Positions 6,119-63,318 of a DNA stretch of 64,000 nt are shown piece by piece. This stretch comes from an uncultured Candidatus Saccharibacteria bacterium (GTDB lineage: Bacteria > Patescibacteriota > Dojkabacteria > B142 > OLB20). Both the position numbers and the translations under genes were made by a program. The notes beneath the pieces were generated by a model, which was given only the letters and a program-made list of their open reading frames with translations, was not told the DNA's origin and ran no database searches. The stretch spans positions 407,205 through 471,204 of the forward strand of contig CAYWVD010000001.1 in the NCBI GenBank assembly GCA_964461915.1, written 5' to 3'. Position 1 is the stretch's first letter. Each line of letters opens with the position of its first letter.

Positions 6119-6544
6119 CTATTTACTTAATAATTGTTCAGCAAGATCAGGCGCAGTTTTAATGATCTCAGCCAATTTGTTTTCCCATGAACTTTTATCC
6201 CAAATCTCCACCCAATCCTTAATTGCAATAAAAACGACATCCGATTTTATTTGCGCATAGGTCAAAAGACTATTTGGTAGAACAAACCTTCCTTGGGAAT
6301 CTAATTCCAGCTCAAAGGCGCCACCAAAAATAAATCTTTTTGTATCTCGAAGACTTAGAGATAAAATCGATTTCTCATTTATTAAATTTTCAAATGACGA
6401 CCATCCGGCCTTATCCATTAACAAGAGACAACCTTCGTAACCCCTCGACAAAAATAATCCGTCTTTTAACTCGTCTCTAATTTTTTTTGGTATGGCTAAT
6501 CGATTTTTATCGGTTAACCTACCATCGAATTCACCTATCAACAT
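6119..6544 (-). CDS. mraZ: Transcriptional regulator MraZ
   Basis: MLIGEFDGRLTDKNRLAIPKKIRDEL matches the MraZ N-terminus (MFxG...D.KGR..IP...R). The ORF-track start at 6622 adds 26 non-conserved residues; the internal Met at ~6544 is the likely start. Two SpoVT/AbrB-like halves. Confidence 0.85.
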   Translation of the reverse strand: MLIGEFDGRLTDKNRLAIPKKIRDELKDGLFLSRGYEGCLLLMDKAGWSSFENLINEKSILSLSLRDTKRFIFGGAFELELDSQGRFVLPNSLLTYAQIKSDVVFIAIKDWVEIWDKSSWENKLAEIIKTAPDLAEQLLSK

Positions 6545-6659
6545 GGTGGGAAATATGATGATGTAGAAGTTTTGAAGCAGTGTAGAACTTGTAGCAAAAA
6601 TACTTAATAGTGCAGGATCCAAAAATAATTATGTTTATTTTTGGTTTTGTATTTAGTTT

Positions 6660-6685
6660 CACCATACTTCACCACCTGTCACCAC
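6660..6685 (-). promoter_or_regulatory. Putative MraZ operator: three direct repeats GTGGTG/GTGGTG/TGGTG (minus strand) at exact 10-bp phasing upstream of mraZ
   Basis: Plus strand reads CACCAtacttCACCAcctgtCACCAc (6660-6685). On the mraZ strand this is GTGGTGacagGTGGTGaagtaTGGTG, matching the known MraZ-box architecture (GTGG-type repeats with 10-nt spacing). Confidence 0.6.
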
Positions 6686-6839
6686 TATAAAACATTTAAA
6701 AAATAAAAACAACTATCTAAAACAGAAAAATTCCCCGAAACTTTCCCGAAAATACCCTCGAAAAACCTCAGAAGCCATTTTATTGTCTATTAATGGGCAC
6801 ATCTGATACAATCCATATATATTAGTTAAAGATTTAAAT

Positions 6840-8273
6840 ATGTCTATCTATACAAAACTAATTGCCTTCTTCGGGATTCTCATCGCAATTTTTTCACTTT
6901 TAATCGGAATCTTTGCCTATCGATATGCGACTGATGTCACATCTTGGCAAATCCGAGACAACACAATTACGGAAAAAGATTTCTCTGACGATCTTAAGGT
7001 CAAGTTAGTACTAGAAAATGGCCAAACAATTAATGCAAATATTGTAAAACCCGACACGGTAATAATGGGCAACATAAAGGGGATTAATACCACAGAAGAT
7101 GGATATGTGAGAATTATCACCAAGGACAATGAACTCGTTTTCGATCCTATGAGTATAATTTTAACTGATGATAATTTTAAAGACGATTCAATCACAGGAT
7201 CAAAAATTAAAGACAATTCTCTAAATGGCTTGGATATAATCGACTACACAATACAAACAACAGATCTTGCTGATTCAAGTATAAATTCACAAAAGATCCA
7301 AGATGGATCACTTGGATTAAACGATGTAAATTTCAAAGTGTTAAGTTCCATTAATGGGATTGTTAGAAATGGTCAAAACATTGATATCATTGGATCAAAC
7401 GGTATCGATGTCATTAACGACTATCAAAATGGGAAAATATTTCTCAATTTAAAATCCCAAATTATCCCTGGGACTTTTACCAATGCAGACACCCTTGATA
7501 ATTTAGATAGCACTTACTTTTTAGACCTCGGTAATATTCAAAAAGGTACTCTGCAAGATCAATTCTATTCTGCTTATTCAGATTTATTTGTAGAAGGGAA
7601 GCTAAATTACGATGCAGATGGCGACCTTATTACTAAGGCAATGTTGGAAAATTACAATCTTTCATTCAAAGAAGCAATTGTTAGAAATAACTTGACTGTT
7701 AAAGGCGACTTAACTGTTGATGGAGACCTATTATTCTCCGGTGCAATCGGATATAACAATTTAATCTTGAGCCCAAAGAGCGGTGAATTTGCCATTCAAG
7801 TCGTCAAAGATTCTGTAAATCAATTTACAATCGATTCACTTGGAAACTTAGTCGCAAATGGAAACATTAATTTAAAGGGGACTTTAGAAACTGCGAATTT
7901 TAAAGATTTAGATGCCACACTCATCAATGCTTTAAATCAGATGGATGCGCAAGATAGAAAAATCAATGATATATCAAAAAAATTGTCTGATTTATCCGAG
8001 ATTGTCCGAGACAATGAATCTAACACCATTTCGGGTAGCGTAAACTGCTTGCCTACTTCGGCAGACATTGAAGAAAGATGCGAAGTTAACGCACCTCAAA
8101 ACAGGACATTTAAATCCATTGTATTTTCGGCACAAAACTCATATAGACCCGTATTTGGATATTTAAAAAAGACACCATTCGGAGAAAATTCTGCTGAGGT
8201 ATTCATTTATTCAGCCACTGGAGTACCAACATATCACACGAAACTATTCTATGTGGCTACTTTGAACGATTAG
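6840..8273 (+). CDS. Membrane-anchored surface protein with phage-tail-fibre-like repeats (hypothetical)
   Basis: N-terminal TM (LIAFFGILIAIFSLLIGIFAY), then degenerate repeats DDSITGSKIKDNSLNGLDI / DSSINSQKIQDGSLGLNDV (I..SKI.DgSL motif), beta-rich G/N/D-rich segments (NLTVKGDLTVDGDLLFSGAIGY), a C-terminal coiled coil and CxxxxxxxxC. Possible extended -10 TGATACAAT at ~6799-6807. Confidence 0.5.
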   Translation: MSIYTKLIAFFGILIAIFSLLIGIFAYRYATDVTSWQIRDNTITEKDFSDDLKVKLVLENGQTINANIVKPDTVIMGNIKGINTTEDGYVRIITKDNELVFDPMSIILTDDNFKDDSITGSKIKDNSLNGLDIIDYTIQTTDLADSSINSQKIQDGSLGLNDVNFKVLSSINGIVRNGQNIDIIGSNGIDVINDYQNGKIFLNLKSQIIPGTFTNADTLDNLDSTYFLDLGNIQKGTLQDQFYSAYSDLFVEGKLNYDADGDLITKAMLENYNLSFKEAIVRNNLTVKGDLTVDGDLLFSGAIGYNNLILSPKSGEFAIQVVKDSVNQFTIDSLGNLVANGNINLKGTLETANFKDLDATLINALNQMDAQDRKINDISKKLSDLSEIVRDNESNTISGSVNCLPTSADIEERCEVNAPQNRTFKSIVFSAQNSYRPVFGYLKKTPFGENSAEVFIYSATGVPTYHTKLFYVATLND

Positions 8274-41033: not shown

Positions 41034-42500
41034 ATGAGATATAATTTGATTGATCTGACTGATTATATTATGAATTGGCAAAAACTCAAAAAGCAAGATT
41101 TTTTATTGACTGTATTAATAATCCTACTATCCTTAATAGGGCTTTTAATAATCTATAGTACGACTTTTAACTATTCACCGGATTCTGCTTTAGGACAAAC
41201 CCTACCTAAGCAGATTATTTTTTTGATCTTCGGATTATCTATTTACTTTATTTTGCTCACAATAGATATATCCTGGCTCGAAAATCAGGGCATTTTAAAG
41301 CTCACATATCTTATAACACTTTTTTTGCAGATTATAGTTAAATTCTTTGGAGACACAAGGGCGGGTACCAATCGCTGGCTAGACATTGGGTTCTTTTCTT
41401 TACAACCTGCAGAATATGCAAAGATTGTAATTATCTTAATAACCGCAAAAGCTTTATACGATATTAAATTCCTAGAAAACAAACCTTTATTTAATAGACT
41501 AACTTTCAAAAAGTCTAAAAAAAACAAATTTTCAAATTTACTTAAAGATAGGCCGATTTTAAAAATAATAGCAAAAAATGCAATTATGGTCTTACCATTG
41601 ATTGGGTTAACGCTTATTCAGCCATCATTAGGGAATGCCCTAATAAGTCTTGCACTCTGGCTATTAGTTTTATTAGTTTTGTTCCCAAAGCCAATATTTT
41701 TAATAAAGACAATAATTGTCCTATTCCTTGGAATTTCTCTTGCATTGCAGATTTGGGAAGTCTCATTTGAATCACCATCATTTATAATTTCAATCTTCAA
41801 TGATTTTAACTGGGTTAGTATAGCAGTCATTTTGTTTACATTGATTGTTTCAATTTTTTTCTTAAAGATTAAGCCGAAACACTTTATACCAACTATAATT
41901 ATCGGATTAATTGTTGTGCTTGGGATTCCAACTCTTTGGAATTCCGGGATTACAAATTATCAAAAAGAAAGGGTACTAACCTTTTTCGAAGGTCCCGAGA
42001 GTGATCCGACTGGCTCAGGCTATCAAGTTATTCAATCTAAAATTGCAATCGGATCAGGTATGTTCTGGGGTAGAGGATATTTGCAGGGGACCCAATCTAG
42101 CCTTAGGGTATTGACCCAAGCTTCTACAGATTTCGCTTTCGCCGCGTATGCTGAACAGTTTGGGTTTGTTGGATCGCTTATCCTGCTAGGGCTTTACTTC
42201 GTTTTACTTCTACGCATTCTAAAAATTGCTCGGGAAAGTAAAAACGAATTTGGAAAGTATCTTGCCTTAGGTGTCGGGATTCTAATGTTCTTGCACATAT
42301 TCATCAATATTGGTATGAATCTTGGCAAATTACCAGTTACAGGAATTCCACTACCTTTGATCAGTTATGGGGGTAGTGCGACAGTGATGATTCTCATTTG
42401 CCTAGGGCTTGTTCAGTCGGTTCAGACCAGCAGAAAATCAGTTGACATCGCCAACAATTTAATGTTAACATCTGCAAGTCTATTGAATAAATCGAAGTAA
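41034..42500 (+). CDS. rodA: SEDS-family peptidoglycan glycosyltransferase RodA/FtsW paralogue
   Basis: SEDS motifs (QPAEYAKIVIIL; PLISYGGSATV), ~10 TM. Second SEDS gene in the window, not linked to murG. Confidence 0.7.
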   Translation: MRYNLIDLTDYIMNWQKLKKQDFLLTVLIILLSLIGLLIIYSTTFNYSPDSALGQTLPKQIIFLIFGLSIYFILLTIDISWLENQGILKLTYLITLFLQIIVKFFGDTRAGTNRWLDIGFFSLQPAEYAKIVIILITAKALYDIKFLENKPLFNRLTFKKSKKNKFSNLLKDRPILKIIAKNAIMVLPLIGLTLIQPSLGNALISLALWLLVLLVLFPKPIFLIKTIIVLFLGISLALQIWEVSFESPSFIISIFNDFNWVSIAVILFTLIVSIFFLKIKPKHFIPTIIIGLIVVLGIPTLWNSGITNYQKERVLTFFEGPESDPTGSGYQVIQSKIAIGSGMFWGRGYLQGTQSSLRVLTQASTDFAFAAYAEQFGFVGSLILLGLYFVLLLRILKIARESKNEFGKYLALGVGILMFLHIFINIGMNLGKLPVTGIPLPLISYGGSATVMILICLGLVQSVQTSRKSVDIANNLMLTSASLLNKSK

Positions 42501-44182: not shown

Positions 44183-45604
44183 TTAGTGCTTGATTTGGAT
44201 TAAAAGACTTTCAGAATCTAAGTATTCTTGGAAAGAAAGCTTAAATTGTTTCTGTGATGAAACTGTAAACTTGAAAGTTAACACATTTCCAGACTGTGAA
44301 GCTTCTAATGATTGAACATCTCTAGCACCAGGGAAAGTTTGCACTGGTGAAGCAACATTTCTTGCTTGAAGATTTGAAACTTCAACAATTAATACATTCC
44401 CTTCGTATTTTGCAGTTACAGTTGGATATTTACTTCCACCATCACCTTTGTTTATTGCTCTATAGAATCGGAATGCATCTGAATAATCTGCCCAGTTAAA
44501 TGATTTACCATTATTAAATAATCCAGCAGATGCTGAATTATTTGTTAATCCATCACTTAATTCTTGAGGATCAATTGAAAAAGTTGTTTCATTTGTCTTG
44601 CCAAGAGCATTTGTTGGTGTAAAGGTTGGCTTGGTTGTTGTCTTAACTGTTGTAGTTACAACAGGAGATCCCGTAACAACTGTTGAAGGTTCCACATTAG
44701 TATCTTCCACTTCAAGAATATCCAAATAAATAACTGGATTATCAGAAGTGCTTAAATGCAACAAGTATGCGGTTTCGTAATTCAAATTAACAGTAAATTC
44801 AATTGCTCCGTCAACTAAAGTAGATTCACTTGTTGTTAACGAACTTACAGTTTTAGAATTTATTGGCATTTCTTTGCCATTCAAAATCGTTGTATCAGCT
44901 CCTAGTGAAGTGTTTGAGAAAGTCAGTGAGATTTCATTTAAACCACTTTTAGTGTATTCTGCTAAAACAGCCGGTAGAGTAGATTCTCCTGTAAGTACTT
45001 CGGTTGAAAATGCAATTCTGGTAAATGAGGTAAAGAAAGAGACATCAAGATTAGATAGAGAGAATTGTGATTCAGATGCCGTTCCTACATTTTGTGTATT
45101 ATCTGTAAAAGTATCGAAGTCAGCCAAAGCATCAGCCTCACTATCAAGTTTTTGATCCTTATCAACAAAAACAGCTAGTGGATCTTCGGTTACGACAACT
45201 GTTGGTTCAACTCCAGTATCTGGAGAACTATTTAATACATTTTTTAATGCAAAATATGATGCTACAGCCAAAGCTACAACGATAATTACCCATATTACAA
45301 TTCTACTGGCAGAGCCCTTTTCGGCATCATCATTTTCTTTTTTTAACTTAACAGCGCCAGGGGGAACAGAAGCTTGCCTTGCAGGCTGTTCAATATTTGA
45401 CTGCAACCTAATTGGTTTGTCAAAGGCCCCGATTTTAGGGATTGAAGTTGGGAAAGAACTTCCACTAGAAATACTGGAAGACCTTTTTTGAGTTAGCGTT
45501 GGTCTTTCGCTATTTAAATCAGAAGGTTCTGGATTGGGCATCTTTAAATTTTTAAAATTTATTAACATATTCAGTATAGTGAAATTCTGTAAATGGTGCA
45601 ACAT
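44183..45604 (-). CDS. Hypothetical Ser/Thr-rich type-II membrane protein (cytoplasmic low-complexity N-terminus, one TM, extracellular domain)
   Basis: TM IVIWVIIVVALAVASYFAL at ~aa 105. Thr-rich linker (VVTTTVKTTTKPTFTPT). No recognisable catalytic motif. True start may be an internal Met (MPNPEP...). Confidence 0.45.
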   Translation of the reverse strand: MLHHLQNFTILNMLINFKNLKMPNPEPSDLNSERPTLTQKRSSSISSGSSFPTSIPKIGAFDKPIRLQSNIEQPARQASVPPGAVKLKKENDDAEKGSASRIVIWVIIVVALAVASYFALKNVLNSSPDTGVEPTVVVTEDPLAVFVDKDQKLDSEADALADFDTFTDNTQNVGTASESQFSLSNLDVSFFTSFTRIAFSTEVLTGESTLPAVLAEYTKSGLNEISLTFSNTSLGADTTILNGKEMPINSKTVSSLTTSESTLVDGAIEFTVNLNYETAYLLHLSTSDNPVIYLDILEVEDTNVEPSTVVTGSPVVTTTVKTTTKPTFTPTNALGKTNETTFSIDPQELSDGLTNNSASAGLFNNGKSFNWADYSDAFRFYRAINKGDGGSKYPTVTAKYEGNVLIVEVSNLQARNVASPVQTFPGARDVQSLEASQSGNVLTFKFTVSSQKQFKLSFQEYLDSESLLIQIKH

Positions 45605-61858: not shown

Positions 61859-61992
61859 ATATCCTTGTAATAAGCTTCGGTTGTCTTAAGTTAATAAATA
61901 TCGGAGCCCTGCCTCCGATATGAAAATCTCATTTTTAGGGGCCACAAAATCGATTGACTATCGATTATTTATTTTTATGTCATTTTTATATA

Positions 61993-63318
61993 ATGAGAAA
62001 TTTTAACAATTCAAGACGACCTTCGAATTTTCGAGGTGGTAGTTCACAAAGCAGTACTTCACAAGGCGGGTATTCTCGAGGTGGTAATTCACGAGGAGGG
62101 TATTCACGAGGCGGAAGCTTCCATGGCAGAAACCCACAGGGTGGAAACTCACGAGGCAACAGCTTTGGAGGAGGTTCCGGTTCAAAATACCGCAGAGGAA
62201 CTAAAAAAACCGGCTTCGCTTTTAACGAAAGCATGTTTATCAAAGCAGCGGAATCCGTTGAAGAAAAGCCATATATCCCAATATTCAAATTCAGCGAACT
62301 AGAAGTTGATCCCATTTTAAAAGAAAATATTTTAAGAAAAGGCTACGATAATCCAACACCTATCCAAAATGATTCCATCAAGAACATTATGGAAGGCAAG
62401 GACCTGCTTGGCATTGCCGATACAGGTACGGGTAAGACCGCAGCTTTTTTAATTCCCTTGGTAGACAAGGTAATTAATAATCCACATAGCAAAACTTTAA
62501 TAATTACTCCAACAAGAGAGTTAGCCGATCAAATCAATCAAGAACTTTTCTTCCTAACACGCAATTTAGGCATTTATTCGGTTCTATGTATTGGTGGGGC
62601 GTATATGAGTAATCAAATTTATAACTTACGAAAAGGTTACAATTTTGTCATCGGAACCCCAGGTAGATTAAAAGATCTTTTCGATAGAAAAGTCTTAAAT
62701 CTTAATGGATTCGACACAATTGTACTAGATGAAGTTGATAGAATGCTTGATATGGGCTTCGTTCACGAAATCAAACACCTTATCTCATTTTTACCAAAAG
62801 AAAAACAGTCATTATGTTTTTCTGCAACAATAGATAAAAAAGTAGAAGAAATAATTAATGAACTTTTAAAACCCGAATACATTAAAATCTCCATCAAAAC
62901 CGGAGTTACAGCTAAAAACATTGAACAAAATATTATCCGTGCTAAAACTAGGGAGGAGAAAATCGTTGAACTCGAGAAACTTTTAAAATCCGATCAATTT
63001 GATAAAATTTTAATTTTCGTCAACACAAAAAGAGAAGTCGATAAACTCGACAAACATCTCTACGGTAGAGGATTCAGAGTAACATCAATCCACGGCGAAA
63101 GACGACAAAACGAAAGAAAAAGATCAATCGAAAGTTTTAAAACCGGAAAAGCAAAAATCTTGATCGCTACCGATGTAGCAGCAAGAGGCTTAGATATTAA
63201 CAATATCTCACTCGTTGTAAACTATGACATTCCTATGAACTACGAAGACTACATCCACAGAGTAGGCCGTACAGGAAGAGCAAACAAAAAAGGAATGGCT
63301 TTAACTTTCGTTGGGTAA
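61993..63318 (+). CDS. DEAD-box ATP-dependent RNA helicase with N-terminal RGG/GGYSRGG low-complexity tail
   Basis: Q-motif region, motif I ADTGTGKTAAF, Ia PTRELA, II VLDEVDRMLDMGF (DEVD), III SAT, V, VI HRVGRTGRANKKG. N-terminal ~75 aa RGG-rich (RGGSSQ..GGYSRGGNSRGGYSRGG...). ORF-track alternative start at 61954. Confidence 0.85.
   Translation: MRNFNNSRRPSNFRGGSSQSSTSQGGYSRGGNSRGGYSRGGSFHGRNPQGGNSRGNSFGGGSGSKYRRGTKKTGFAFNESMFIKAAESVEEKPYIPIFKFSELEVDPILKENILRKGYDNPTPIQNDSIKNIMEGKDLLGIADTGTGKTAAFLIPLVDKVINNPHSKTLIITPTRELADQINQELFFLTRNLGIYSVLCIGGAYMSNQIYNLRKGYNFVIGTPGRLKDLFDRKVLNLNGFDTIVLDEVDRMLDMGFVHEIKHLISFLPKEKQSLCFSATIDKKVEEIINELLKPEYIKISIKTGVTAKNIEQNIIRAKTREEKIVELEKLLKSDQFDKILIFVNTKREVDKLDKHLYGRGFRVTSIHGERRQNERKRSIESFKTGKAKILIATDVAARGLDINNISLVVNYDIPMNYEDYIHRVGRTGRANKKGMALTFVG

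Follow-up and report, generated by a model that had tools for sequence, protein, structure and literature searches.

A membrane-anchored protein with phage tail-fibre modules encoded beside mraZ in a Saccharibacterial genome: a candidate surface attachment fibre

The predatory bacterium Bdellovibrio bacteriovorus carries mosaic adhesive trimer (MAT) fibres, phage-like proteins in which a conserved base is followed by a modular shaft and by varied lectin-type tips (Caulton et al., 2024, PMC10769870). Among the Saccharibacteria, the cultured members live as obligate epibionts, and several adhesins are essential to them (PMC10633639). Here we describe a gene of an uncultured Candidatus Saccharibacteria bacterium, located at 6840..8273 (+) in a 64-kb stretch of contig CAYWVD010000001.1 (the window), which encodes a membrane-anchored protein of 477 amino acids (aa) that shares modules with phage tail fibres. 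We give about an even chance to the reading that it is a cellular surface fibre with a lectin-like tip, probably trimeric, which binds another cell, most plausibly a bacterial host. In the following, compared loci and contigs are numbered L001 to L012 and relative proteins carry P-numbers.

The MAT fibres are the closest described system. Like them, the window protein is cellular and phage-tail-fibre-like: behind a conserved N-terminal base come a shaft of modules and, at the C-terminus, a small tip of beta-rich or lectin type. Bdellovibrio is a bacterium that must recognize other bacteria, as proposed for this lineage. The MAT superfamily has a conserved beta-rich N-terminal domain of about 130 aa behind a signal peptide; the window protein starts with a transmembrane (TM) helix and an 83-aa domain of its own family. 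The MAT shaft is an intertwined trimeric beta-helix, and monomer models of the shaft of the window protein reach a predicted local distance difference test score (pLDDT) below 50. The anchoring differs, and the MAT fibres are treated here as a functional analogue; the tip of the window protein showed no similarity to the solved Bdellovibrio MAT tips. Trimeric autotransporter adhesins such as YadA share the plan of a fibrous surface adhesin with repeats, coiled-coil segments and a distal head. These proteins carry a C-terminal outer-membrane beta-barrel anchor and an N-terminal head, whereas in the window protein the TM helix is N-terminal and the head is C-terminal. No Pfam match to a YadA-type C-terminal membrane anchor was obtained, the C-terminus is modelled as a soluble beta-sandwich, and the only link to this class in the family comes from P0002, whose match to Trp_ring lacks significance (E 0.83).

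The gene is a complete, ATG-initiated open reading frame (ORF) of 477 codons and a stop, and its N-terminus MSIYTKLI is kept in orthologues. In its composition the residues I, N, L, D, S, T and G are prominent. As the first-pass annotation of this DNA had proposed from the letters, it has one N-terminal TM anchor (aa 6-26, 6855..6917, +). This helix is the sole hydrophobic segment (mean Kyte-Doolittle hydropathy over 19 residues 2.9) and corresponds to helix 3-29 of the AlphaFold2 (AF2) model. Its N-terminal flank of 4-9 residues is net positive and without an acidic residue in seven of the eight TM-bearing family members, and on the C-terminal side most of them have a neutral or acidic flank, which is consistent with the positive-inside rule and thus with an N-in, C-out orientation that would place the fibre domain outside the cell. 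The flanks also speak for the cell-surface placement suggested at first pass. As the hydrophobic core comprises about 20 residues and no A-x-A cleavage motif was seen, the helix is more likely to be a signal anchor than to belong to a signal peptide that is cleaved off. Behind the helix follows a predicted juxtamembrane beta-rich domain (aa 28-110, 6921..7169, +), whose A4 profile is matched over its full length by family members only and which is modelled with a pLDDT of about 35-54.

The next part consists of five in-phase units of 10 residues (aa 113-162, 7176..7325, +). Their motif, [ILVF]-x-D-x-[STG]-[ILV]-x4, starts at aa 113, 123, 133, 143 and 153, and an isolated extra copy lies at aa 38. 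The six motif matches compare with 0.75 expected, and only one of 5000 shuffles reached as many, for a motif that was set after inspecting the sequence. Self-identity of the protein has its maxima at lags 10 and 20, and a hydrophobic residue recurs at each fifth position across 11 pentads. The repeats seen at first pass therefore exist, but their unit is 10 aa and not about 19. They are followed by a beta module of the type 'SSING...NG-NIDI-G-NGI' (aa 166-207, 7335..7460, +), common to the family and six other fibre-like proteins, and by the module 'NADTLDNLDSTYF ... SAYSDL ... DLITKA' (aa 208-275, 7461..7664, +), which is common to 20 of the top matches and stands in tandem in some of them. 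The last part of the shaft is a G/D/N-rich putative beta segment (aa 276-352, 7665..7895, +) found also in P0004, P0101, P0114 and others, with a predicted fold of low confidence. A coiled coil of six heptads forms the putative neck (aa 353-394, 7896..8021, +), again in line with the first-pass description. It is without Pro or Gly, nine of its 12 a/d positions are I, L, M, V or F (10% elsewhere; two of 5000 shuffles equal), and AF2 renders it as a single long helix.

The resemblance of the repeats to phage tail fibres, which had been proposed from their style, was found in several sources. PHROG 892, a 'tail fiber protein' family, matched aa 109-158 of the query with E 9.5e-5 and the closest relative P0002 with E 3.9e-8. 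This match spans about 50 of the 782 profile positions and covers the repeat region only; by its sequence, the query shares a module with PHROG 892 and is not a full-length member. Via other modules, further family members match the tail-fibre PHROGs 5342 and 8443, the tail-needle PHROG 1219 and the tail-spike PHROG 1171, and in P0044 the region equivalent to aa 208-275 matches PHROGs 5342 and 8443. A scan of IMG/VR gave one viral contig, L012 (IMGVR_UViG_3300029448_000612). Its fibre gene encodes many repeat copies and then 'SNADTLDNIDSSGFL', belongs to PHROG 892 (E 2.4e-55) and adjoins a tailspike-like ORF. The L012 fibre is 33% identical to the query over 113 aa, with the repeats and the NADTLDN-DS-FL motif behind them in the same order.

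A profile of 30 repeat sequences was also compared with the PDB. The top match, and the sole significant one, is a virion protein of Legionella phage LME-1 (9EG4 orf16, E 1.1e-5), where the entry was identified as LME-1 through PMC12407071. Weaker matches were the cyanophage P-SCSP1u fibre gp28 (E 0.0076) and a putative tail tip fibre (7Z4B, E 0.24), so that the top three are all phage virion proteins. In Pfam, four of the 30 repeat segments gave a weak match to Phage_Tail_Tip. The DUF5907 repeat (PF19264) was rejected as an assignment, as neither the query nor any of the 30 segments matched it; the giant relative P0013 matches DUF5907 at 5e-35, overlapping its match to the query repeats. With the whole protein, searches against Pfam, NCBIfam and PDB sequences gave only coiled-coil noise, with no Pfam match at E ≤ 10, and did not assign the protein to a different family. 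A tblastn search against 50,697 INPHARED phage genomes gave nothing at E ≤ 0.01.

The likeness to phage fibres of the L012, PHROG 892 and 13518 type thus consists of the 10-residue repeat and the motif that follows it. In phage fibres the N-terminus serves virion attachment, the repeats are far more numerous and the tips are of other kinds, as in the tailspike-like end encoded by the L012 neighbour ORF, whereas the window protein has a TM anchor, a base and a tip specific to its family and a housekeeping context. A virion context of the PHROG 892 type is not seen, since no phage structural genes lie nearby and the N-terminus is a TM helix instead of a virion-attachment domain. Judged by its sequence, the protein shares modules with phage fibres and is itself not a phage fibre.

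The gene is cellular. Among the genes of the 64-kb window no phage genes were found, which agrees with the earlier remark that no phage genes flank it. To the left, on the minus strand, lie mraZ, rsmH, ftsL, a class B penicillin-binding protein (PBP) gene and genes for a MurA-like enzyme and a sigma factor; to the right follow dnaE in convergent orientation and then cysS, murG and ftsW. The gene has a G+C content of 0.347 compared with 0.342 for the window, and in view of this native composition a recent horizontal import was rejected. The slot beside mraZ is occupied by a family gene in four other contigs (L001, L003, L004 and L008).

The tip (aa 395-477, 8022..8270, +) is the part of the protein for which a fold could be predicted. 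AF2 monomer models were made with alignments of three and of nine sequences, which raised the mean pLDDT from 37.6 to 50.7 with the gain in the C-terminal domain. In this domain aa 395-477 reach a pLDDT of 80-90 and form six beta-strands, modelled as a beta-sandwich. A Foldseek comparison with the PDB placed the Helix pomatia and Helix aspersa agglutinins, the R1 and R2 pyocin fibre tips, the phi297 tailspike and AP22 gp53 on top, with E 1.4e-2 or weaker and with probabilities of 0.75-1.0. In BFVD the matches were tail fibre proteins, minor tail proteins and one 'H-type lectin domain' protein. The predicted fold is likened to H-type lectins (Helix pomatia agglutinin 2CCV, SLL-2 and the discoidin C-domain) and to domains at the distal end of phage fibres and R-type pyocin fibres (6CXB, 6CL5, 4MTM and 9RPT). 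H-type lectins are six-stranded beta-sandwiches that form trimers with a GalNAc/Gal site between the subunits. These fold matches appear mutually consistent but modest. By sequence, the tip profile has no relatives in PDB and Pfam, and neither the protein nor eight tip sequences matched H_lectin (PF09458) in Pfam at E ≤ 10. The structural check suggested at first pass thus did not refute the tail-fibre reading, as the one domain predicted with confidence has a likeness to H-type lectins and to the tips of trimeric fibres; the shaft model is of low confidence and does not establish a beta-helical fold.

Exactly two cysteines are present in the protein, and both lie in the tip, as had been noted before: Cys403 (8046-8048) and Cys414 (8079-8081). 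Six of eight family members have both, and the single member without the pair has neither. Such joint presence or absence is the pattern expected of an extracellular disulfide.

The relatives of the protein were collected by two kinds of search. A word-indexed search returned a 99% copy, the orthologue P0002 (62%) and one repeat-only protein, and with an alignment of the N-terminal domain it returned only a fragment of the same protein. When 1.84 billion representatives were searched exhaustively with a profile, 1618 matches had E ≤ 1e-3. Nearly all of them arise via the 10-residue repeat (aa 108-165) or via the module 'ADTLD-LDS-F ... SAY-DL ... DL-TK' (aa 208-275), and the proteins matched in this way are giants of up to 4696 aa. 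Eight proteins were found at E ≤ 1e-30, four of them giant repeat proteins, and about nine family relatives are among the 150 matches listed. The TM helix, the juxtamembrane domain and the Cys-bearing C-terminal domain are shared, among the matches listed, by P0002, P0004, P0011, P0044, P0028, P0101 and P0114; P0007 has the N-terminal part of the family and a coiled-coil end instead. Family members retain both ends and differ in the middle, with 0-5 repeat units and lengths of 353-904 aa, a behaviour also known from modular receptor-binding fibres. The two end domains were not seen outside the family among the proteins compared. No member is named in any source checked, and the family is small, rare and newly recognised. 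A metagenome scan gave nothing beyond the already known contig.

The first-pass suggestion to look for homologues in related genomes and in phages thus led to the L012 fibre, related at module level, and to a set of syntenic loci. P0002 is from a metagenome-assembled genome of Candidatus Saccharibacteria, and the order mraZ (minus), fibre gene (plus) and dnaE (minus) is kept at its locus. At the P0004 locus the gene stands between mraZ and a fragment of dnaE, and at the P0007 locus the adjacency to mraZ is kept. The order is also kept at the P0011 locus (L004), with a glycosyltransferase gene of the PMT_2 family inserted before dnaE. This gene (L004 7068-8204) encodes a PMT_2/Mannosyl_trans2-like membrane protein, and its position hints at a possible glycosylation of the fibre in certain lineages. 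The genes for P0028, P0101 and P0044 are located in other contexts and not beside mraZ. In these three distant members a small protein is encoded on the same strand 3' of the fibre gene (L005 1831-2346, L006 4515-4928 and L007 8653-9108). These proteins of 137-171 aa are 43-55% identical to each other and have an N-terminal TM helix, the motif YQIVY-(L/M)-(N/D)G-LFYFC and conserved cysteines. They may be a partner or an assembly factor of the fibre; no homologue was found in the window by tblastn at E ≤ 1.

The fibre gene is the fastest-evolving gene in its block. Between the window and the P0002 locus, identity amounts to 62% for the fibre protein; of the 13 neighbours, 12 have values of 81-93% and murG has 71%. 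The corresponding values are 40% for the fibre protein and 62-82% for the neighbours in L003, and 32% and 44-81% in L004. Within the protein, identity to P0002 is 65-78% in the base modules, 57% in the shaft, 26% in the coiled coil and 58% in the tip; towards P0004 it is 26% in the coiled coil and 27% in the tip, so that the coiled coil is the most divergent segment in both comparisons. Receptor-binding fibres show this pattern, in which the base is conserved and the distal end varies. Among five copies from different samples, which are at least 99% identical, the tip residue of codon 465 (8232-8234) is Y, F or S and only four other positions vary. Within 90% clusters the microdiversity does not suffice for tests of selection. 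A role as target protein of a diversity-generating retroelement was considered and rejected: apart from one weak inverted match at chance level, no repeat of at least 30 nt in the 64 kb pairs with 6840-8273, which argues against a variation system of this type inside the window, and no reverse transcriptase was found among the scanned ORFs of the window.

Based on these data we propose the following arrangement for the attachment fibre. A short cytoplasmic N-terminus and the single TM helix would hold the protein in the cell membrane, and the family-specific juxtamembrane domain would be placed in the wall zone. The shaft modules of phage-fibre type and the coiled-coil neck would then project the small lectin-like beta-sandwich knob outward. 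By analogy with the trimeric proteins that share the modules and the tip fold, the protein is most likely a homotrimer. Its knob would recognise a glycan or a protein at the surface of another cell, most plausibly that of the lineage's bacterial host, much as phage receptor-binding proteins and the MAT fibres of Bdellovibrio do, and may in this way take part in host attachment.

Several points weigh against this arrangement. In the AF2 monomer model aa 27-350 are poor (pLDDT 25-55); such values are to be expected when an obligate oligomer is modelled as a monomer from a shallow alignment, and prove nothing either way. The family is also very rare. [quoted passage not shown] As no such gene occupies this slot in Southlakia, the protein cannot be a general Saccharibacterial attachment factor. 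In addition, an epibiont lifestyle of the source organism is extrapolated from its cultured relatives.

The fibre gene and mraZ are transcribed divergently, as stated at first pass, and share an intergenic region. In the mechanical ORF list mraZ extends over 6119-6622 (-) with a TTG start and 167 aa. Based on conservation and the MraZ domain, the start is instead the ATG at 6544 (MLIGEFDG..., 141 aa) and not the TTG at 6622, and the intergenic region therefore comprises 295 bp and not 217 bp. It contains an MraZ-operator-like site of three CACCA boxes (TGGTG on the mraZ strand) with a spacing of 10 nt at 6660..6684 (-), which is unique in the window with 0 expected. The surrounding block TCACCATAYTTCACCACCTGWCACCACTATAAA (6658-6690) is invariant across five syntenic loci. 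Described MraZ operators consist of three GTG(G/T)-N6 boxes (PMC12957436). On the mraZ strand the three boxes here read GTGG-N6-GTGG-N6-ATGG, which looks like a canonical three-box operator.

Between this site and the fibre gene, upstream of its candidate promoter, lie paired CCGAAA direct repeats about 12 nt apart (6735..6750, +), unique in the window with 0.12 expected. Each of the five syntenic loci has them in the corresponding place, and a third, degenerate copy lies near 6764-6771. These repeats are a candidate binding site of some regulator. The candidate promoter itself (6783..6812, +) is a consensus match only, with TTGTCT, an 18-nt spacer and a TG-extended TACAAT; a TG-n-TAYAAT element stands in the equivalent relative place in L001, L003 and L004.

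This arrangement allows a more specific version of the attachment fibre, which we regard as rather unlikely: a domesticated or newly built phage-type fibre, fixed in the membrane of the cell, whose fast-evolving lectin-like tip would set host choice and whose expression, wired to MraZ via the shared intergenic region with its operator, would be timed to the cell cycle, for example to newly divided cells in search of a host.

The same neighbourhood could also indicate a protein that serves the envelope or cell division, i.e. a structural fibre or spacer that spans the wall and whose task, for example in septum or envelope architecture, belongs with the dcw cluster instead of with the binding of another cell; its phage-like modules would simply be generic building blocks. 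The gene adjoins mraZ-rsmH-ftsL-PBP in five loci, and the invariant three-box operator makes co-regulation with the division genes conceivable. However, the Saccharibacterial genomes are broadly syntenic here, and adjacency may be functionally meaningless; moreover, the distant members P0028, P0101 and P0044 lie in unrelated contexts. Evolution that is the fastest in the block, with distal variability, would be unusual for a core component of division or wall, and the predicted tip resembles lectins and receptor-binding tips. We consider the structural role less probable still.

A non-trimeric protein has only a small probability. In this case the repeats would form a short, monomeric right-handed beta-helix like that of pentapeptide-repeat proteins, in a compact monomeric or dimeric membrane protein with another function. 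The hydrophobic residue at every fifth position over 11 pentads would fit, the repeat-rich P0003 has PDB matches to pentapeptide-repeat proteins, both designed and natural ones, with E about 1e-5, and relatives show weak Pentapeptide_4 matches. But the query has no Pfam pentapeptide match even at E 10 and the P0003 matches are composition-biased (12 of 27 bits). True pentapeptide repeats follow A(D/N)LXX with a small residue at position i-2, whereas in many query units this position is D, N, Y, Q or K. Furthermore, AF2 left the repeat region unfolded as a monomer, the PDB matches of the repeat profile are phage virion proteins with one significant among them, and behind the repeats come a coiled coil and then a tip whose fold is known from trimers.

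Equally improbable is a phage-directed role, in which a phage receptor-binding protein, domesticated or left as a remnant, would act against phages, for instance as a surface decoy or by masking a receptor, and not in attachment between cells: two shaft modules homologous to phage tail fibres, a tip fold like that of phage and pyocin fibres and a rapid evolution that fits an arms race would be in favour, but the 64 kb hold no phage genes and the composition is native, the N-terminus is a membrane anchor and not a virion-attachment domain, none of the 50,697 phage genomes gave a tblastn match at E ≤ 0.01, and the end domains are confined to the cellular family among the proteins compared.

The 3' ends of the fibre gene and dnaE overlap by 17 nt (8257-8273; 4 nt in L001), which leaves no space for a terminator between the two convergent genes. 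No paralogue of the fibre gene is found within the window. The remaining window encodes uvrABC, an AddA-like helicase, glmS, glmM, a second gene of the FtsW/RodA family (41034-42500) and similar genes. Amid these housekeeping genes lies an uncharacterised ORF of 473 aa at 44183-45604 (-) with no Pfam match at E ≤ 1e-5. Six tandem imperfect repeats of 15 nt, 60-73% identical to the reference copy, were seen at 62027-62146 near the 5' end of a DEAD-box helicase gene (61954-63318).

If the protein is only a lineage-specific surface protein, its interest would be modest and local. As an attachment fibre it is a concrete and testable candidate, since the protein is of a size suited to expression, its tip is a separable domain whose binding to glycans or host envelopes can be assayed, and its natural variants differ mostly in the distal part. 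It would then extend an idea documented for the predatory Bdellovibrio, namely that bacteria living on bacteria reuse the architecture of phage receptor-binding proteins, to a different lineage and with a different anchoring solution, an N-terminal membrane helix.

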